From assembly GCA_000990005.1 (NCBI GenBank), contig LBPF01000004.1:1-59299 (forward strand): a stretch of DNA of 59,299 nucleotides, written 5' to 3'. Position 1 is the stretch's first letter; every line of letters starts with the position of its first letter. Below, in pieces: positions 3,621-59,299 of this stretch. A program made the position numbers and the translations under genes. The notes under the pieces are model-generated. The model worked only from the letters and a program-made list of their open reading frames with translations, made no database searches and was not told the origin of the DNA. Source of the DNA: Candidatus Woesebacteria bacterium GW2011_GWB1_33_38 (GTDB lineage Bacteria; Patescibacteriota; Microgenomatia; UBA8517).

Positions 3621-4000
3621 ATAGAATCTTTTTTCTCAAACTGTCTTTTGGCCTTGCCAAGAGTCAATTCAAGCTTAATCCTACGTTTGCGATTATACAT
3701 CATTGTGGGCACGATTTGCAAGTTTTTTTGTTTTGTTTTTGTAACCAGAGCTAAGATTTCACTTCTATGAAGTAGAAGTTTTCTCATTCTAGTTGGTTCG
3801 TATTTTAAAATTCCCTTAGCTGGAATGTTAGCGTTAATTAAAAATACTTCACCGTTTAAAACTCTGACATGAGATTGTGATAAATCTATCCGATTGTCAC
3901 GGAATGATTTAGCCTCAACACCTTTTAAGACAATACCAGCCTCAACCTTTTCAGGAGTTAGTTCATATTCAAATCTTGCTCTTTTATTAAAGATGCGCAT
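3563..4000 (-). CDS. smpB: SsrA-binding protein SmpB
   Basis: MRIFNKRARFEYEL..GIVLKGVEAKS..HRSEI is the SmpB signature. Start chosen at the internal ATG 3998-4000. The C-terminal tail overlaps the tmRNA 5' region. Confidence 0.85.
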   Translation of the reverse strand: MRIFNKRARFEYELTPEKVEAGIVLKGVEAKSFRDNRIDLSQSHVRVLNGEVFLINANIPAKGILKYEPTRMRKLLLHRSEILALVTKTKQKNLQIVPTMMYNRKRRIKLELTLGKAKRQFEKKDSIKQKTGFDGKLFYKTASQV

Positions 4001-13610: not shown

Positions 13611-14696
13611 ATGCGTATGTTACGAAAACAAGTAATAGAAATAATTAAAAAAGCAAGAGACCAGGGATTTTTGATTCAAGAAGAAATATTAGAAATTTTT
13701 CCAGACGCCGAGGGAAGAATTGAAGAGTTAGACAACTTATACGACCAACTCCTTTCAGAAGGTATTGATGTTTTTGAGTCCGTTGCCTCAGACGATGAAA
13801 CTTCAATTGAAGCTTCCAAAGAAAAGCTTGATAAGGAAATAGAACTTTTAACTAGACTTGAGGGTATTGAATCAACTGATCCTGTTAGACAATATTTAAG
13901 AGAGATTGGTAGGGTTCCACTTTTGAATGCTGAAGACGAAATTGAGTATGCGAAGCGTTACGAAAAACAAGAAAAAAGAGCTAAAGATAAGTTAACTGAA
14001 AGTAATCTTCGTTTGGTTGTTTCTATTGCCAAAAAATATATTGGTCGCGGGCTATCACTTTTAGATCTTATTCAAGAGGGTAATCAAGGTTTAATTCGTG
14101 CTGTTGAAAAATATGATTGGAGAAAAGGATTTAAATTTTCAACCTATGCCACTTGGTGGGTACGACAAGCTATAACAAGGGCAATTGCTGATCAGGCAAG
14201 AACTATTAGAATCCCTGTTCACATGGTTGAAACTATAAATAAGCTTTATAGGGCAAGCCGTAGGTTGATGCAGGAATTGGGAAGAGAACCGACACCTGAG
14301 GAAATTGGGGAACAAGTAGAGCTTGATGGAGACAGAGTCAGGGAGATATTTAAAATTGCCCAAGAAACAACATCACTTGAAGCTCCTGTCGGAGAAGACC
14401 AGGAAAGTATTTTAGGGGACTTTATTCCAGATGAAAGCCAGCTTTCTCCAGTTGATCAAGCCAGTAAACAACTTTTAAAGGATCATTTAGATGAGGTTCT
14501 TGGGACTTTAACTGAGAGGGAGGCAAAAGTTTTAAAGCTTCGCTTTGGACTTGAGGGAACAAAACAAATGACCCTAGAAGAAGTTGGTAGAGTTTTTGGA
14601 GTAACCAGAGAAAGAATAAGACAAATTGAGGCCAAAGCCCTTCGTAAACTTAAACACCCCTCCCGCCGCAAAAAATTACAGGATTATTTGGATTAA
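13611..14696 (+). CDS. rpoD: RNA polymerase sigma-70 factor
   Basis: Region 2 [14 protein letters not shown]. Region 4.2 [30 protein letters not shown]. Confidence 0.92.
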
Positions 14697-14908
14697 ACTT
14701 CAACTCCTTTTTTTCCACCTTCTTGGCGTAAAGAAAGGTTCACTTCCGTAATTGGTTTGAGTACAGGATCAACCATTTTTTTTGTTATTCCCACACTGTT
14801 TATATTAGCACCAATACCCAAGGCAACACCTGCGGCATATAGTTCGTCGGTGTTTATCACATTTTCACTTAAGACCTTGCCTTGATCATTGAGAATTTGA
14901 ATTTTCAT
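14693..14908 (-). CDS. small protein, (CA)n-promoter family member P1
   Basis: 71-aa ORF. N-terminus [12 protein letters not shown] resembles 33335..33553. The promoter lies 9 nt upstream. Confidence 0.5.
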
Positions 14909-14917
14909 AACAGATGT

Positions 14918-14946
14918 ATTCTAAGTTGTGTGTGTGTGGATGTCAA
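14918..14946 (-). promoter_or_regulatory. TTGACA-N17[(CA)n]-TAGAAT promoter, leaderless spacing
   Basis: Minus strand reads TTGACAtccacacacacacaactTAGAATacatctgttATG. Confidence 0.6.
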
Positions 14947-14967: not shown

Positions 14968-15123
14968 ATGAAAAAATTAAAATTAAAAAAGATACCAAAA
15001 TTTAAAACTGAAAAAGAAGAGAGACTGTTTTGGTTAAAAGTCGATTCCACTGAATATGTTGATTGGTCTAAAGCCGAAAGGTGGAAATTTCCAAATCTTA
15101 AACTTACTTCTAATTGGAACTAG
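14968..15123 (+). CDS. BrnA-like antitoxin N-terminal fragment (51 aa, not in ORF track)
   Basis: MKKLKLKKIPKFKTEKEERLFWLKVDSTEYVDWSKAE parallels MTKKIPKFRNIEEEQKFWQKNDTTEYFDLS of 44083..44352. No toxin partner is present. Confidence 0.4.
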   Translation: MKKLKLKKIPKFKTEKEERLFWLKVDSTEYVDWSKAERWKFPNLKLTSNWN

Positions 15124-20368: not shown

Positions 20369-20628
20369 TCCTCGGTAGCTCAACGGCAGAGCAGATTCCT
20401 GTCAAATGGCAGCACTTGATAGTAATATCAGGAGGCAAATCAGGCTAATTCGGGGAACGCCTAATTAGTTTTAGGTCAATCCCGAGCTAAGTCCCCGATT
20501 TAATTGGGGTAAATGTGTAGAGACTATATACCTGACACCAGTTTCTGGTGATGAGATAGTCCAGTCCTTTTGGTAACAAGAGGGGTTCTGTAAGAATAAG
20601 GTTGCACGTTCGAATCGTGCCCGAGGAG
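20369..20628 (+). tRNA. tRNA-Asn(GUU) interrupted by a group I intron
   Basis: The exons join to TCCTCGGTAGCTCAACGGCAGAGCAGATTCCTGT|TAAGAATAAGGTTGCACGTTCGAATCGTGCCCGAGGAG. U1-A72, G73 and the CUGUUAA loop match E. coli tRNA-Asn. Confidence 0.8.
20403..20590 (+). ncRNA. group I intron (IC3-like, ORF-less, 188 nt)
   Basis: P1 pairs CTGT with GCAG, giving U.G at the 5' splice site. The terminal G sits before the 3' exon. P7 is TCAGG/CCTGA. The core GTGTAGAGACTA is identical to the Azoarcus tRNA-Ile intron segment as I recall it. Confidence 0.75.
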
Positions 20629-25850: not shown

Positions 25851-26300
25851 ATGAAAATATATATTGGTGCGGATCACAGGGGCTATGCCCTAAAAGAAAA
25901 AATAGCAAAATGGCTATATGAAATGGAGTATGAATTTACTGATCTTGGTGCTGTTAATTTAGATCCTAAAGATGATTATACAAAATATGCAACTGAGGTT
26001 GCATCTTTAGTTTCAAAAGATTCTGAATCACTTGGAGTTTTAATCTGTGGTAGTGGTGTGGGAGTTGAGGTCATAGCCAATAAATTTGATGGTATTAGAG
26101 CGTTTATAGGAAAAGATGTAAGACAGGTTAAAGCTGGAAGGATAGAGGATGATGCAAATGTTCTAACAATAGCTGCTGATTACACTACTGAAAAAGAAGC
26201 AAAAGCAATGCTTATTTCATTTTTAGAAAGTAGGTTTTCAGCAAAAGAAAGATACAAAAGAAGGTTAAGTGATATTTCAAAAATTGAAGCAAACAATTAA
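25851..26300 (+). CDS. rpiB: ribose-5-phosphate isomerase B
   Basis: IGADHRGYALKE, LICGSGVGVEVIANK. Confidence 0.85.
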   Translation: MKIYIGADHRGYALKEKIAKWLYEMEYEFTDLGAVNLDPKDDYTKYATEVASLVSKDSESLGVLICGSGVGVEVIANKFDGIRAFIGKDVRQVKAGRIEDDANVLTIAADYTTEKEAKAMLISFLESRFSAKERYKRRLSDISKIEANN

Positions 26301-26333
26301 TCTTTTCCATCTATTTTATCACTCATGAGCGGT

Positions 26334-26352
26334 ATTTTACTGTGTGTGTCAA
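26334..26352 (-). promoter_or_regulatory. decayed (CA)n promoter copy with a 9-codon ORF remnant
   Basis: Minus strand reads TTGACAcacacagTAAAATaccgctcATG AGT GAT AAA ATA GAT GGA AAA GAT TAA. The spacer is only 7 nt. Confidence 0.5.
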
Positions 26353-26426
26353 TAGAGGCACGTGTTAAGATCCAACCTTTTTAAGTATCCGCTTGACAAA
26401 GTATGAATTTAATTCATAATTAGAGT

Positions 26427-26660
26427 ATGAGTTACAAAAGAATAACGGTTAGCTTACCAGATTATCTATATGAAGATATGCTTGCCCTTACACCTACACG
26501 AGGAGTGAGTGGTTATGTAGCCGAGGCTGTACAAAAAAGAGTTTTGCAACAGAAGGTAAAACCTGAGGATGCTGTAACTAATTTTTTAGCTTTACGCGCA
26601 GAGTCTCCTAAAAAAAATATAAAACAAATATTAAATGCTATACATAAAGGTAGAACATGA
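26427..26660 (+). CDS. ribbon-helix-helix (CopG-like) antitoxin
   Basis: KRITVSLPDYLYEDM. 4-nt overlap with the downstream PIN gene. Confidence 0.6.
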   Translation: MSYKRITVSLPDYLYEDMLALTPTRGVSGYVAEAVQKRVLQQKVKPEDAVTNFLALRAESPKKNIKQILNAIHKGRT

Positions 26661-27070
26661 ATAAATGTGTATTGGATGCCTCAATAATTTTAACATCCTT
26701 ACTTGAAAGCAAAAAAAGTGTTTTAGATAAAATAAATACCTATCTTTTTGATATTCAAAAAGGAAGCTTAAAATCATTTTCTGTGAATTTTTTGAAAACT
26801 GAGGTTGCAAACGGTTTAAGATTTGGTTTATCTGATCCCGAGAAAGCAACTAAATTTTTCAACAGTTTTCTCTCTTTACCCATAAAATATGAAAAATTAG
26901 ACACACCACTGTACGAAGAAGCAATTTATTTAGCATTTAAATACAAGACAACTGTGTACGATACTCTCTATCATGTTTTAGCCAAAGCTCAGAATGCTAT
27001 GTTTTTAACTTGTGATGAAGATTACTACAAAAAGGCAAAAAGTTTAGGAGATATTGAATTAATAAAATAG
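26657..27070 (+). CDS. vapC: PIN-domain toxin (VapC-like)
   Basis: N-terminal LDASIIL and C-terminal FLTCDEDYY acidic residues. Confidence 0.6.
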   Translation: MNKCVLDASIILTSLLESKKSVLDKINTYLFDIQKGSLKSFSVNFLKTEVANGLRFGLSDPEKATKFFNSFLSLPIKYEKLDTPLYEEAIYLAFKYKTTVYDTLYHVLAKAQNAMFLTCDEDYYKKAKSLGDIELIK

Positions 27071-27089
27071 AAAAACTGGAAGCGAATAA

Positions 27090-27329
27090 TTAACTTTTTT
27101 TACTAGATCCAACAGTTTCATTAAAAACTTGTCTTAAACTGCCATCAGCTGTTACTAAATCCTTGGCAATTTCTGCATTTTCCTGGTTAATTAAGTTTCC
27201 ATGTCCGTCATAAAGTTGTTCATATTCCTCCATAGCTCCATTTGCTAAACTGCCAGCCACATGCGGATCAACCTCAATGATATGATTACCACGTTCAGTA
27301 CTTATTGTGATTCTAATTTTAGGTATCAT
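27090..27329 (-). CDS. small protein, (CA)n-promoter family member P3 (79 aa)
   Basis: ATG 27327-27329 lies 7 nt downstream of TAGAAT. The longer track ORF (27090..27458) would read through the promoter. Confidence 0.5.
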   Translation of the reverse strand: MIPKIRITISTERGNHIIEVDPHVAGSLANGAMEEYEQLYDGHGNLINQENAEIAKDLVTADGSLRQVFNETVGSSKKS

Positions 27330-27336
27330 GAGTGGT

Positions 27337-27365
27337 ATTCTAGTCTGTGTGTGTGTGAATGTCAA
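27337..27365 (-). promoter_or_regulatory. TTGACA-N17[(CA)7]-TAGAAT promoter
   Basis: Minus strand reads TTGACAttcacacacacacagacTAGAATaccactcATG. Confidence 0.6.
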
Positions 27366-27428
27366 TACAAAGCTGATATCTAAAATAATGTAACTTGACA
27401 AAGTAATGAGGTATATTATAATAATGTA

Positions 27429-27680
27429 ATGCAACAAATAGTTTCTATCACCAGCCAAGGACAGTTATCAATTCCCAGATTAATGCTTTTAGATTTAGGT
27501 ATTTACGGTGCTACTAAGGCCTTTATTCAAAAAACTGGCAATGTGATAACTGTTGTTCCTAAAAAAGACTTTTGGGCATTAGGAGGGTCATTAAAGTCAG
27601 ATGTACGATTAACAAACAAACAATTAAAAAAGGCTAGAGAAAGTTTTTCAAAAAATTGGGCTCAAATACAATGGAATTAA
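27429..27680 (+). CDS. AbrB/SpoVT-type antitoxin
   Basis: ITSQGQLSIPRLML looped-hinge motif. Promoter TTGACAAAGTA..TATAAT lies 6 nt upstream. Confidence 0.6.
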   Translation: MQQIVSITSQGQLSIPRLMLLDLGIYGATKAFIQKTGNVITVVPKKDFWALGGSLKSDVRLTNKQLKKARESFSKNWAQIQWN

Positions 27681-28057
27681 TAGATACAAATATAATACTT
27701 AGATATTTAGTGAATGACGATGATAATTTTTACAACAAAGCTAAAAACATACTCAAAGAAGCAGAGATAGGTAAAAGAAAAATTCAAGTGAAAGTTGTGG
27801 TGATTGCAGAGTGTTGCTATGTACTTGAGTCTTTTTATAAAAAATCTAAAGAAGAAATTGCTTCAGCAATGGAAGTATTTTTGTCACAAAGATGGCTTAA
27901 AGTTGAAGATAGATCAGCGCTTTTATCAATGTGGAATAATTTCAGGCAAAATTTACATTTTGTCGATTGTTATTTACTGGCACTAGCGGGCACAAATAAA
28001 TACAAAATAATTACTTTTGATAAAGAATTAAATAAAAAATCTGAAGCTAATAATTGA
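27671..28057 (+). CDS. vapC: PIN-domain toxin (VapC-like)
   Basis: MELIDTNIILRYL...FVDCYLLA..IITFD. Confidence 0.65.
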   Translation: MELIDTNIILRYLVNDDDNFYNKAKNILKEAEIGKRKIQVKVVVIAECCYVLESFYKKSKEEIASAMEVFLSQRWLKVEDRSALLSMWNNFRQNLHFVDCYLLALAGTNKYKIITFDKELNKKSEANN

Positions 28058-28168
28058 AATTCTTTAATCTGCCCAACGTGGCGAAGTGTCCTCTTTTATT
28101 TCTGCCTTCTCTTTCGTATACTTTACCTCGATCTTGTTCTTCCATATCGTCTGATGATAATATAAATT

Positions 28169-31474: not shown

Positions 31475-32320
31475 ATGAAAACACACACGATTGATGAGCT
31501 TCAAGAAGTTGCAAAAGAAGTTAGACGAGATGTCGTAAAGATGATCTTGAAAGCTGGAGCAGGGCATCCTGCTGGATCTTTAGGTATGGTTGATGTTTTT
31601 GTGGCGCTTTATTATGCGATACTTCGTAATGATCCAAAAAATCCTGAATGGGAAGATCGAGACAGATTGATTCTCTCAAATGGCCATATTTGTCCCGCAA
31701 GATATGCAGTTATGAGCCATGTGGGTTATTTTGAACATAAAAACTTACTAAAATTGGGTAGTTTTAAAAGCATTCTCCAAGGGCACCCTGACAAAAGGTT
31801 TTTATCAAGCTTAGAGACAACATCTGGGCCCCTTGGGTCAGGTTTGGCACAAGCAGCAGGAATTGCCTATGCTGCCCGTATGGATCAAAAAAGATTTAGA
31901 ACATTTGTTATAACTTCAGATGGTGAACATGATGAAGGTAATCATTGGGAAGCTGTAGCCTTTGTTGGAAAAAATAATCTTTCAAATCTCACAATGATTG
32001 TTGATAGAAACAATATTCAAATAGACGGTTTTACCGAAGAAGTCATGCCGTTAGAACCTTTGATTGATAAATATAAAGCATTTCATTGGGCAATATTAGA
32101 GGTTGATGGACATAACATTAAAGAGATTGTTGAGGCTTGTAATAAAGCTAGAGCTATTTATGAAAACCCTACAGTAATTATTGCAAGGACCATTCCAGGT
32201 AAAGGTGTTCCGTTTATGGAAGGTAATCCTAATTGGCATTCCAAGGCACCAAATAGTGATGAAGTGCGAGAAGCAATTAAAGATATTAGAAATATGAAAG
32301 GAGAAATAGAAGATTACTAA
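31475..32320 (+). CDS. transketolase, N-terminal subunit
   Basis: DRDRLILSNGH, TSDGEHDEGNHWEA. Confidence 0.85.
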   Translation: MKTHTIDELQEVAKEVRRDVVKMILKAGAGHPAGSLGMVDVFVALYYAILRNDPKNPEWEDRDRLILSNGHICPARYAVMSHVGYFEHKNLLKLGSFKSILQGHPDKRFLSSLETTSGPLGSGLAQAAGIAYAARMDQKRFRTFVITSDGEHDEGNHWEAVAFVGKNNLSNLTMIVDRNNIQIDGFTEEVMPLEPLIDKYKAFHWAILEVDGHNIKEIVEACNKARAIYENPTVIIARTIPGKGVPFMEGNPNWHSKAPNSDEVREAIKDIRNMKGEIEDY

Positions 32321-32338: not shown

Positions 32339-33334
32339 ATGCTAAATTCTAAATTATTTTTATCTGACAAAATATTTAAAAAAGATATTGAAGTGAAACT
32401 AATGAGAGATGGATTTGGTTTGGGGCTTCTTGAGGCGGGGGAGAAAGATCCGCGAATTGTTGTTCTCTCGGCAGATCTAAAGGAATCCACAAAAGCTTCA
32501 TATTTTGCTGAAAAATTTCCTGAAAGATTTATTGAAGTAGGGGTAGCTGAACAAGCTTTAGTAACAATTGCCTCAGGCATGGCTAATTATGGGAAAATTC
32601 CATTTTGTACATCCTATGCAATTTTCTCACCAGGAAGAAATTGGGAACAAATAAGAACAACAATTGGGATAGATAGCTATCCAGTAAAAATAATTGGTGC
32701 CCAATCAGGACTTAATATTGGTCATTATGGAGTAACTCATCAGGGATTGGAAGACATAGCTTTAATGACAGTCATTCCAAACATGAACGTTGTTGTGCCA
32801 AGTGATTATTTAGAAGCTAAAAAGGCCATCTTACTAATGGCCGAAGACAATAAGCCATATTACATGCGTTTGCCAAGAATTGAAAGTCCTGTTTACACAA
32901 CAGAGAAAACTCCTTTTAAATTTGGTAAGGCAAACGTATTAACTGAAAGTAAAAATCCAGAGGTAACAATTGTAGCAACAGGGTTAATGGTTTACGAAGC
33001 ATTGCTTGCTTACAAGGAACTTGAAAAAAATGGTATAGAGACAATTGTTGTTAATATGCATACTATTAAACAGATAGACGAAGAAACTATTATTCGTCAA
33101 GCTAAATTAACGGGAGCTGTTGTAACAGTTGAAGAACACCAAGTAATTGGGGGATTGGGATCGATAGTTTCCTCTGTTTTATCTAATAATTTTCCCGTGC
33201 CAATGGAAATATTAGGAGTACAAGACAGATTTGGTCAGTCAGGTAAACCAAAAGAACTTTTTGAAGAATATGGATTAACCAAAGAAGACATAATAAAAGC
33301 TGTCAAAAAAGTCATTGCAAGGAAAAATAGCTAA
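32339..33334 (+). CDS. transketolase, C-terminal subunit
   Basis: FIEVGVAEQALV...EEHQVIGGLGS. Confidence 0.85.
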   Translation: MLNSKLFLSDKIFKKDIEVKLMRDGFGLGLLEAGEKDPRIVVLSADLKESTKASYFAEKFPERFIEVGVAEQALVTIASGMANYGKIPFCTSYAIFSPGRNWEQIRTTIGIDSYPVKIIGAQSGLNIGHYGVTHQGLEDIALMTVIPNMNVVVPSDYLEAKKAILLMAEDNKPYYMRLPRIESPVYTTEKTPFKFGKANVLTESKNPEVTIVATGLMVYEALLAYKELEKNGIETIVVNMHTIKQIDEETIIRQAKLTGAVVTVEEHQVIGGLGSIVSSVLSNNFPVPMEILGVQDRFGQSGKPKELFEEYGLTKEDIIKAVKKVIARKNS

Positions 33335-33553
33335 TTAAAATTGATTTTCAGGTCCTTTAACAAAACTTCTCTCGGTTAATTCTCTAGTAGCTGCTCGAAA
33401 AGTATCTAAAATCTCCTCAATTTTATTTGTATTACCCATTTCTTCTGCGCCTCTAAACATCGAAATACCAACCAAGGCTATGTCTTCTGGTTTTAGGTTG
33501 TTGGCTGTTTCTTTTACAACCTTATTTTCATCATCAAGTATTACAATTTTCAT
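33335..33553 (-). CDS. small protein, (CA)n-promoter family member P2
   Basis: MKIVILDDENKVVKE resembles P1. The promoter lies 6 nt upstream. Confidence 0.5.
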   Translation of the reverse strand: MKIVILDDENKVVKETANNLKPEDIALVGISMFRGAEEMGNTNKIEEILDTFRAATRELTERSFVKGPENQF

Positions 33554-33569
33554 ATCCGTATTATAGTGT

Positions 33570-33601
33570 GTGTGTGTGTGTGTGATGTCAATTAGTAGTT
33601 T
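33570..33601 (-). promoter_or_regulatory. TTGACA-N20[(CA)~9.5]-TATAAT promoter (over-long spacer)
   Basis: Minus strand reads TTGACAt(ca)n cTATAATacggatATG. The spacer, counted at 33576-33595, is 20 nt. Confidence 0.55.
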
Positions 33602-33646
33602 AATTAGTACTGGAGTTTATTCTTAATTTGTTACTATAATGTATCT

Positions 33647-34612
33647 ATGAATTCAACTGTCCAACGGCTTTTAGCTCCATACAAAGGAATTTTGGCGGCT
33701 GATGAATCAACAAAAACAATTGAGAAAAGGCTTATGGCTTATGGTCTACAGTCTACTGAAGAAATAAAACAAGCATACAGAAAAATGCTTTTTACAACCC
33801 CAGACATAGAAAAATATATAAGTGGAATAATTTTATATAAAGATAGCTTAGATTTTATTCCACTTCTGAATCAAAAAGGAATTACTGCTGGTATTAAAGT
33901 TGATGAGGGATTGGAAAGTTTTAATGGAACAGAGGAAGAAGTAACTAAGGGCTTAGAAGGTCTTTCAGCAAGACTTGATAAATATATAAATCTTGGAGTA
34001 AGGTTTACCAAATGGAGGGCAGTTATTAAGATTTCTAATATTTATCCTAGTGATACTTTTTTGGAAGAGAATCTTGGTAGAATGTCCAAATATGCAAAAA
34101 TGGTACAAGAAAAAGAAATAACACCAATTGTTGAGCCAGAAGTGCTACTTGATGGAAATCATACTACCGCAAGATGTGAAGAAACCATGACCAAAACACT
34201 TAAGAAATTATTCGAGCTTCTAATCAAAGAGAATGTTGATTTGGATAATTTGCTACTCAAAAGTAGTATGGTTTTGCCTGGTAAAGATAGTGGGGTTGAA
34301 GCTTTACCATTGGAGGTAGCCAACGCAACACTTCGTACTTTTAGAAACTCAGTTCCAAACAAATTAAGAGGGATTGTTTTCCTTTCAGGGGGGCAAACTT
34401 CAGACCAAGCTATAAATAATTTAAATGAAATCGTCAAATTAAATATTGGCAATAAATTTGGTCCTTGGGATATCTCATTTTCTTATTCGAGGGCTTTACA
34501 AAATGACGCCTTAGCCATCTGGATAGGTAAAATCGAGAATGTGACTAATGCGCAAGAAGTTTTTGGTAAGAGATTGCAAATGGTATCGAAAGCTAGAATG
34601 GGAGAACTATGA
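33647..34612 (+). CDS. fba: fructose-bisphosphate aldolase, class I
   Basis: GILAADESTKTIEKRL, KWRAVIKI, LLKSSMV. Confidence 0.8.
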   Translation: MNSTVQRLLAPYKGILAADESTKTIEKRLMAYGLQSTEEIKQAYRKMLFTTPDIEKYISGIILYKDSLDFIPLLNQKGITAGIKVDEGLESFNGTEEEVTKGLEGLSARLDKYINLGVRFTKWRAVIKISNIYPSDTFLEENLGRMSKYAKMVQEKEITPIVEPEVLLDGNHTTARCEETMTKTLKKLFELLIKENVDLDNLLLKSSMVLPGKDSGVEALPLEVANATLRTFRNSVPNKLRGIVFLSGGQTSDQAINNLNEIVKLNIGNKFGPWDISFSYSRALQNDALAIWIGKIENVTNAQEVFGKRLQMVSKARMGEL

Positions 34613-41639: not shown

Positions 41640-41762
41640 TTAACCTGTTTTTGATACAAAGCAAGAAGTTTTATTTGAAATCCTTTTTCTAGCTTCACTT
41701 TGCATTCCAGCCATTATGAAATTATCATAAGCTCTACATAAGGCATTCGTAAAAGTCTCCAT
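41640..41762 (-). CDS. 40-aa ORF behind a (CA)n-type promoter (P4, not in ORF track)
   Basis: METFTNALCRAYDNFIMAGMQSEARKRISNKTSCFVSKTG. The ATG lies 7 nt after TATACT. Confidence 0.35.
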   Translation of the reverse strand: METFTNALCRAYDNFIMAGMQSEARKRISNKTSCFVSKTG

Positions 41763-41769
41763 GGTCAGC

Positions 41770-41798
41770 AGTATAGCCAGCGTGTGTGTGAATGTCAA
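41770..41798 (-). promoter_or_regulatory. TTGACA-N17[(CA)4]-TATACT promoter
   Basis: Minus strand reads TTGACAttcacacacacgctggcTATACTgctgaccATG. Confidence 0.5.
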
Positions 41799-58029: not shown

Positions 58030-58100
58030 GGGTGTGTCGTTCATCGGTAGGACGGTACTCTTATAAAGTATCAAGGATGGTTCGACTCCATCCACACCCA
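58030..58100 (+). tRNA. tRNA-Ile(UAU)
   Basis: GGGTGTG acceptor, D stem GTTC/GGAC, anticodon stem GTACT/AGTAT, loop CTTATAA, T-arm GATGGTTCGACTCCATC. Confidence 0.75.
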
Positions 58101-59198
58101 CAGAAATGGATTTTCCGGCGAGTCGGGAATGGCGCTCGCCGCGCCCGCCCCCGTGGCGAGCGCTGCAAAGCCCAGTTTATATACGCAAAAAAGCCGCCGA
58201 TTAGAAACAAGGTAGTCCGAGCCGACTTTTTTGGCGAAGAATGATAATTCTTCGCCATTATGTTTCGCGCGCGCGATTTTGGCCGCATCAGCGGCCACTT
58301 CTACAAATTCCCTCATTAGTCCGAGCCATTCACTTCCGTTTTTGGAAACACTTGCCATTTTCTCCTTCAATCTGATTTTTAGTTCCATTAATTCGTTTTT
58401 CTTTTGTTGATAGACTTGGGGATCAACTATCTGGTCGAGATAGCCTTCAAGTAACCGATCAAGTTTTTTGTCTATTTCTTGAACTTCGGAAGAAAATTTT
58501 GTAACTTGATTTTCACTATTTGTTTTTTCTTCCGTTTCCTCTTTATCAAGTCTTTCTATCCACAGTTTAGTCCACGAAGTGGGCAGGCTGGCTTTTTCAA
58601 CAATTGCTCGCAATTGTTGCTCTAAAAGTTCTTCCCGCAGATAATTTTGTGAACAATCGGTTTTCTTTTTGGTACAGCGATAGTAGATGTAATCCACATT
58701 TCCCCTCGTTGTTGGATAGCATTTGTGTTTGACTTCGGCGGTGATGGCACAGCCACATTTAGCGCACTTGGCCAATCCCAGAAAAGCAAAGTTGTGCTTT
58801 TTGTTTTTAGGATGTTCTCTTGCCTCGAGAATTTTCTGAATTTTTCCAAACAACTCTGGGGGAATAAACAGTTTATGAGTCCCTTCGTAGGTTTCACCTC
58901 CGAAGTTGATTATGCCAACGTAAAACTTGTTGCTTATAATCCTCTTTACCGTATCAAGGTGAAGCATTTTACCGTTGTATCTGGTAATGCCAAACTTTTG
59001 AAAAAATCGAGAAATGTTAGCAATAGAGCTTTCGCCTTCGGCGAAAAGCTCAAATGCTTTTTTGACGATTTTTGATTTTACCGGATCAATTTCGATTGTT
59101 CGTAATCTCGGCTCGTTGAAATATCCGTACGGCGCTTTATTAGGTAAAATTCCTTTTCGCAGTTTTTGCCGATTGCCTCGTTTTACATTTTCGGACAA
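58071..59198 (-). pseudogene. 5'-truncated large serine recombinase (lacks catalytic domain)
   Basis: Homologous to residues ~134-end of 7832..9361 (LSENVKRGNRQKL..., CAKCGCAITAE, YYRCTKK). An in-frame TAA lies just upstream of the homology. The 3' end runs antisense into tRNA-Ile. Confidence 0.7.
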
Positions 59199-59299
59199 AT
59201 TCAGGACTTACGCATTTTGACAAACTATAAGTTGGTGGTTTAAACTTTGTGGTAAGAATGGTGGTGATATAAAAAGTGGGGATAAAATGCAATAAAGAG

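Follow-up and report, generated by a model that had tools for sequence, protein, structure and literature searches.

Can the number of CA units between the -35 and -10 boxes of a promoter control a gene in an uncultured patescibacterium? The question is raised by a minus-strand locus, here called D, within a 59,299-nucleotide stretch of DNA from Candidatus Woesebacteria bacterium GW2011_GWB1_33_38 (the window), where a first-pass annotation had proposed a slipped-strand, phase-variable promoter. Patescibacteria are uncultured and have tiny genomes, and their gene regulation is almost uncharted; this bacterium is one from groundwater. To our knowledge, repeat-driven phase variation is known almost solely from cultured, host-adapted pathogens. 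Because copies that are otherwise identical differ in repeat count, expression of D is probably tuned by slippage, as in some pathogens.

The D promoter and its leaderless gene

On the minus strand the locus reads ctaa-TTGACA-TCACACACACACACACACAC-TATAAT-ACGGAT-ATG. The -35 hexamer TTGACA (33591..33586) and the -10 hexamer TATAAT (33565..33560) each match the consensus at 6/6 positions, and the 6 nt ACGGAT separate the latter from the start codon of gene D at 33553. Between the boxes lies the spacer TCACACACACACACACACAC, which is T(CA)9C and 20 nt long (33585..33566); read on the plus strand, it is (GT)9.5 at 33566-33584 (19 nt) plus an A at 33585. This simple-sequence repeat, a pure dinucleotide tract with nothing else in the spacer, is the longest of its family, and it was the sole period-2 array reported by Tandem Repeats Finder across the window. 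The spacer length of 20 nt and the roughly 9.5 GT units given by the first-pass annotation were both correct on recount; the position it assigned, 33576-33595, was 10 nt too far right (the actual one is 33566-33585), although it lies within the range of its finding. The sigma-70-type assignment was borne out by perfect hexamers, a -10 at the distance from ATG that is standard in the window, and an encoded primary sigma factor. At 20 nt, the window allele falls outside the sigma-70 spacer range of 17 ± 1 nt. Candidates for an alternative -35 inside the tract at 17-18 nt, ACATCA and GACATC, match TTGACA at no more than 2/6 positions and were rejected.

Divergent from D is an aldolase gene (Pfam match of the product, Glycolytic), whose leaderless promoter on the plus strand has TATAAT at 33635..33640, ATG at 33647 and no recognisable -35. 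The tract was also considered as part of a divergent plus-strand promoter, and this was rejected because the distance to the plus-strand -10 differs at D and at two of its sister promoters, A and C (described below). Two copies of ACTAATT with a period of 12 nt directly precede the D -35 (33590-33608, minus strand), and the second of them overlaps it; they could represent an operator or an UP-element-like sequence.

The TATAAT hexamer occurs 75 times on the two strands of the window. Twelve of these copies stand exactly 6-7 nt before the ATG of an ORF of at least 60 aa, and two stand at other distances between 0 and 30 nt from such an ATG. This spacing recurs before start codons window-wide, and mRNAs in the organism are therefore mostly leaderless. 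Examples of leaderless ATGs are those at 975, 6514, 13617, 16922, 21392, 21753, 27429, 33647 and 52175 on the plus strand and at 4000 and 46760 on the minus strand. The gap between TATAAT and ATG is 6 nt at D and 6-7 nt in its orthologues, in which the layout is kept. We infer the transcription start of D from this fixed 6-7-nt distance, and there would be no room for a 5' UTR or a Shine-Dalgarno sequence between the -10 and the ATG.

Five of the six promoters that combine a perfect TTGACA with no CA tract have spacers of 16-17 nt, and the sixth has one of 13 nt. The window also encodes a full-length primary sigma factor, RpoD (13611-14696), with matches to Sigma70 r1_1, r1_2, r2, r3 and r4. 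With spacers of 16-17 nt and a sigma factor that spans regions 1.1 to 4, the organism can be expected to follow canonical spacing rules. In our own reading, 8 of the 12 TATAAT promoters at the leaderless distance lack a usable -35, those of the aldolase gene and rpoD included, so basal transcription from a -10 alone is likely and a misaligned -35 may cost little. Leaderless, -10-dominated promoters are a feature of Actinobacteria, Deinococcus and archaea. These resemble the promoters described here in having a -10 located 6-7 nt before the start codon, no Shine-Dalgarno sequence and often no -35, and we know of none with a microsatellite spacer.

Gene D itself is a conserved leaderless ORF of 72 aa (33335..33553, minus strand). 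Its orthologues on contigs L003 and L019 share 80% and 56% amino-acid identity with it, and the corresponding dN/dS values are 0.13 and 0.26; D is therefore a protein-coding gene under purifying selection. A HMMER search of 1.8 billion representative proteins returned two D orthologues together with weak TPR_10 repeat matches over residues 28-61. The AlphaFold2 model comprises a beta-hairpin plus two helices (mean pLDDT 78) and appears weakly TPR-like; among solved structures (PDB), a fold search with this model found no match better than E=1.1. A Pfam search with the protein returned no family, and searches for loci related to it gave no match in collections of genome and metagenome contigs from which the source genome seems to be missing. 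Neither a signal peptide nor a membrane segment is apparent in D. Phase-variable genes typically, though not obligatorily, act at the cell surface, and in this respect D is unlike them, a point against the phase-variable reading.

The D ORF ends directly against a split transketolase, meeting its C-terminal half tail to tail; the transketolase is present as two plus-strand ORFs (N-terminal half 31475-32320, C-terminal half 32339-33334). Contig L002 diverges completely from the window left of ~32376, which suggests a structural variant at the transketolase junction. In the complete genome CP011214.1 (L015, 6499-6800), an unrelated small gene (MSKNSSGDKKFLIILL...) occupies the interval between transketolase and aldolase. 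Its product looks membrane-type, and it has TATAAT, 6 nt and ATG with no CA tract.

CA-tract promoters in the window and in related Woesebacteria

All five GT tracts of at least 9 nt in the window are on the plus strand and are followed by TGTCAA within 0-2 nt; all five therefore belong to minus-strand promoters. By a rough estimate, the chance of five of five long tracts abutting TTGACA on the same strand is ~7e-15. Besides D, these are promoters A, B, C and E. Promoter A (14918..14946, minus strand) has TTGACA at 14946..14941, the 17-nt spacer TC(CA)6ACT, TAGAAT and 9 nt to the ATG of a 71-aa ORF (14693..14908, minus strand), a paralogue of D with 29% identity at the protein level (pairwise E=3e-5). 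Promoter C (27337..27365, minus strand) has TTGACA at 27365..27360, the 17-nt spacer TT(CA)6GAC, TAGAAT and 7 nt to the ATG of a 79-aa ORF (27090..27329, minus strand). Promoter E (41770..41798, minus strand) has TTGACA at 41798..41793, the 17-nt spacer TT(CA)4CGCTGGC, TATACT and 7 nt to the ATG of a 40-codon ORF (41640..41762, minus strand), which precedes a class A PBP gene. These are the three other copies for which spacers of 17 nt had been claimed. The fourth other locus, promoter B (26334..26352, minus strand), has TTGACA at 26352..26347, a spacer of 7 nt (CACACAG), TAAAAT and 7 nt to an ATG; a 9-codon ORF follows, and B faces rpiB, pointing into its 3' end. Copy B resembles copy C with 10 nt deleted between ACA repeats.

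Across the window there are 13 copies of GTGTGTGT, where shuffles predict 0.77, and the pattern TTGACA...TATAAT occurs 3 times against 0.3 expected. Homologue searches with the A and C proteins returned the query itself alone. None of the CA loci matched a known RNA family in an Rfam scan; a group I intron (Rfam match, 76.8 bits) lies at 20391-20583 on the plus strand, and the window also carries a tRNA-Ile with anticodon TAT (58030-58101) and a (CG)5 tract (58266-58275).

The neighbours of the CA promoters are rpoD and a CopG gene at A, PIN toxin-antitoxin modules at B and C, an aldolase gene at D and PBP genes at E. The toxin-antitoxin modules lie on the plus strand at 14968-15123, 26427-27070 and 27429-28057. 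Divergent to promoter A lies the gene for a 51-aa CopG-type antitoxin, whose nucleotide sequence is conserved in L009 and L010, and around B and C there are two modules, each consisting of a small ORF and then a PIN-domain gene. GC skew is positive in 13 of 14 intervals of 4 kb, and all five CA promoters are on the minus strand. If the plus strand is the leading strand, the genes behind these promoters are all lagging-strand encoded; with n=5, the minus-strand bias could be chance or could be linked to a slippage bias.

The same design recurs in related Woesebacteria: TTGACAT, then T or C, (CA)n, TAnAAT, 6-9 nt and ATG. The window is syntenic, at 65-85% nucleotide identity, with the Woesebacteria MAGs GW2011_GWB1_33_22, GWF1_31_35, GWB1_39_10 and RIFCSPLOWO2_01_FULL_39_23. 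When 596 Gb of representative genomes were scanned for TTGACATYCACACAC...TAnAAT...ATG, 13 matches were found. Nine of them are on Woesebacteria or Patescibacteria contigs, an assignment made from the title or from synteny with the window, and the remaining four fit the ~2 that we estimate for chance. The motif is essentially confined to Woesebacteria. Every CA-tract promoter found carries TTGACAT, apart from L019, which has TTGACT, and one L006 copy, which has TTGACAA, and in a dozen promoters TTGACAT(T/C)CACACAC is invariant over ~15 nt whereas the -10 follows at distances of 13-20 nt. The TTGACAT junction and the CA unit are conserved, the number of units is not, and the downstream ORFs are mostly unalignable, a pattern that argues for selection acting on the CA tract.

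In scans of viral sequence, the D-type 14-mer turned up only in a phage promoter whose 16-nt spacer contains 3.5 CA units, and this was rejected as unrelated. One phage family in IMG/VR (L021-L026, ~35% GC) carries TTGACATCACACACATTTAATGTATAAT, 7 nt and an ATG in front of a gene of ~490 aa, a near-leaderless promoter beginning with that 14-mer; these contigs have no similarity to the window.

Repeat number at D and at orthologous promoters

Four spacer lengths were found at the D locus: 14 nt (L019), 15 nt (L003), 18 nt (L018) and 20 nt (the window). Contig L018, from JGI sample 3300025117, can be aligned to the window from 33592 to 30335 (3.2 kb) without a mismatch; the only gap, of 2 nt, corresponds to the absence of one CA unit and leaves the spacer as T(CA)8C, 18 nt or 8.5 units. 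The first-pass annotation had predicted that loss of one unit would restore 18 nt, and an allele of that kind does exist, at the end of a contig: L018 starts 1 nt upstream of TTGACA, and the 18-nt allele falls within its first 26 nt. The break could mean that the assembly graph forked at the tract, or that the contig was ended there by a stutter read at low coverage. As a minus-one-unit product, the allele is also what PCR or sequencing stutter is expected to give, and it could be an artefact.

The 90% cluster of the D protein contains an 84-aa member starting LTSHTHTHYNTDM, which comes from the same contig. It is a read-through of TTG-ACA-TCA-(CAC-ACA)x2-CAC-TAT-AAT, a frame that is open only with the 18-nt spacer. 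Exact look-ups of six hypothetical N-terminally extended products of other tract lengths gave 0 hits in the protein collection. The identical 72-aa D protein is present on 35 contigs. Tract lengths were read, besides L018, in L001, the window's own contig, with 9.5 units, and in L002 (run SRR2177968), which differs from the window by 1 SNP over ~1380 nt and also has 9.5 units. The window is identical to JGI contig Ga0209211_10000632. An exact-pattern scan of metagenome contigs for the D locus with a variable gap gave 0 matches.

Among the orthologues, L019 has TTGACT followed by T(CA)6C (14 nt), and L003 has the interrupted tract TCATAATACACACAC (15 nt). At the E locus, the spacer is 17 nt in the window and 15 nt in the L004 orthologue. 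In L003, a stretch at 962-1059 beside a DDE transposase is 93% identical to the end of the window (59202-59298, a 98-nt stretch), which adjoins an ORF at 58071..59198 on the minus strand; L003 is also the contig with the 80% D orthologue, and the stretch is probably the end of an insertion sequence.

A CA-tract promoter directed toward the 3' end of rpiB is kept in seven contigs from seven genomes (L006, L008, L009, L010, L011, L014 and L015), the corresponding slot in the window (26300-28160) holding B and C. The spacers in these contigs are 13, 14, 15, 15, 17, 19 and 19 nt long. L009 has TT(CA)6ACC (17 nt) and L011 has TT(CA)7ACC (19 nt), one CA unit apart; L008 (15 nt) and L014 (13 nt) are likewise one CA unit apart, with an identical CC tail. 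Orthologous promoters in related Woesebacteria thus have spacers of 13-19 nt that differ by whole CA units. The small ORFs of the slot (69-84 aa) are mostly unrelated between genomes, and in GW2011_GWB1_33_22 (L011) the promoter is kept without any ORF, antisense into rpiB.

Taken together, the L018 allele and the whole-unit differences between orthologues indicate that repeat-number instability is likely to be real, and slippage at the tract would presumably be frequent. The phase-variable promoter of the first-pass annotation stands in part: the promoter, the 18-nt allele and the whole-CA-unit differences are there in the sequences, and control of D promoter strength by repeat number is what we infer.

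Slippage as a proposed control of D, and the rival explanations

In the reading that we prefer, gene D would be read as a leaderless mRNA from a sigma-70-type promoter whose whole spacer is a CA microsatellite, and replication slippage (slipped-strand mispairing) would add or remove CA units. The spacer has the form T(CA)nC, so it can take only even lengths (14, 16, 18, 20 etc.). At 16 or 18 nt (n=7 or 8), sigma would contact the -35 and -10 together and transcription would be high. With n=9 (20 nt, as in the window) or n=6 (14 nt, as in L019), the -35 contact would be lost, leaving basal transcription from the -10 only. Because -10-only promoters are common in the window, high versus low output is to be expected, not a strict on/off switch. 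The output of a small, fast-evolving protein would then be adjusted by the tract, heritably and reversibly, in the manner of a volume control. As the whole explanation of the locus, this slippage-driven, spacer-length control of D seems to us about evenly poised between right and wrong.

Among the rivals, the serious one is a static promoter, which we consider rather unlikely. It holds that the tract is inherited within the family and drifts slowly and neutrally in length, that D is expressed constitutively from its -10 with TTGACA dispensable, and that the L018 allele is artefactual. Most leaderless promoters in the window do manage without a -35, L001 and L002 both have 9.5 units, and L018 breaks 1 nt upstream of the -35. 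The 14- and 15-nt spacers of the D orthologues are out of range and could equally mean that the -35 is never used at D. Against neutral drift, TTGACAT and the CA unit are kept where the downstream ORFs can no longer be aligned, and drift should have eroded them too. Differences between orthologues are whole CA units beside identical tails, and over 3.2 kb L018 departs from the window at one point only, inside the tract.

An improbable reading is that selection on the CA tract concerns its sequence or structure and not changes in its length, the tract serving as a regulator site beside the -35 or as a flexible, Z-DNA-prone segment; alternating purine-pyrimidine DNA of the latter kind would confer sensitivity to supercoiling and tolerance of odd spacer lengths. 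The invariance of TTGACAT(T/C)CACACAC across -10 distances of 13-20 nt fits such selection, and the CA promoters drive unrelated genes, as the members of a regulon do. However, no candidate regulator is linked to the CA loci, whose neighbours differ, no palindrome or second half-site was found, and exact-unit changes between near-identical sequences are left unexplained, although slippage is compatible with this reading. That AT-rich DNA resembles a promoter here by chance, and that the ORF is no gene, has next to no probability and is already refuted by the results. A generic promoter scan did give 68 sites against 60 in shuffled sequence, but the TTGACA...TATAAT excess, the abutment of TTGACA by all five long tracts, the window-wide rule on the distance from -10 to ATG, the dN/dS values of D and the conservation of the motif across genomes all stand against chance.

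Slippage-driven control of D has a close precedent, which the first-pass annotation had named: in Haemophilus influenzae, the hifA/hifB fimbrial promoter has a (TA)n repeat between its -35 and -10 (PMC3899988). There, as at D, a dinucleotide microsatellite forms a sigma-70 spacer that moves in 2-bp steps in and out of 16-18 nt (PMC3899988), and the tract of ~9-10 units is of like length. The differences are several. The unit is TA in hifA/hifB and CA at D; the D tract serves one promoter, the -10 of the divergent aldolase promoter being 44 nt from the D -35; and the D mRNA is leaderless. In place of a surface organelle, D encodes a predicted soluble protein of 72 aa without known relatives, and its host is an uncultured patescibacterium in which switching and its effect on expression are predictions. 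Homopolymer spacers are found at porA of Neisseria meningitidis (poly-G), fim of Bordetella pertussis and vlp of Mycoplasma hyorhinis (poly-A) (PMC3899988). The repeat number in these spacers grades promoter strength (PMC3899988), as expected for D too, and porA output is graded, not binary (PMC3899988). Their tracts shift in 1-bp steps, whereas that of D shifts in 2-bp steps, and unlike D these genes encode surface antigens of host-associated pathogens.

A search of ~8.3 million papers returned nothing relevant linking Patescibacteria with phase variation. The D promoter can plausibly be added to the repeat-in-spacer class as a new case; we found none described for this phylum. More tentatively, and with some doubt on our part, a conserved CA-microsatellite promoter module in one clade of Woesebacteria may make contingency loci, with heritable and reversible changes of expression, of small, rapidly replaced, relative-less leaderless genes. 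Apart from D, the window gives clear sequence evidence that the lineage has mostly leaderless, -10-dominated promoters, which helps in calling gene starts. The CA promoters single out relative-less small proteins as candidates for variable functions, and a promoter microsatellite offers a regulatory hypothesis that can be approached from metagenomic reads alone, through tract-length alleles across samples. If the CA-microsatellite module does make contingency loci, it would be the first repeat-based phase variation in the Candidate Phyla Radiation, and it would suggest bet-hedging within the presumed lifestyle of these bacteria as symbionts attached to other cells.
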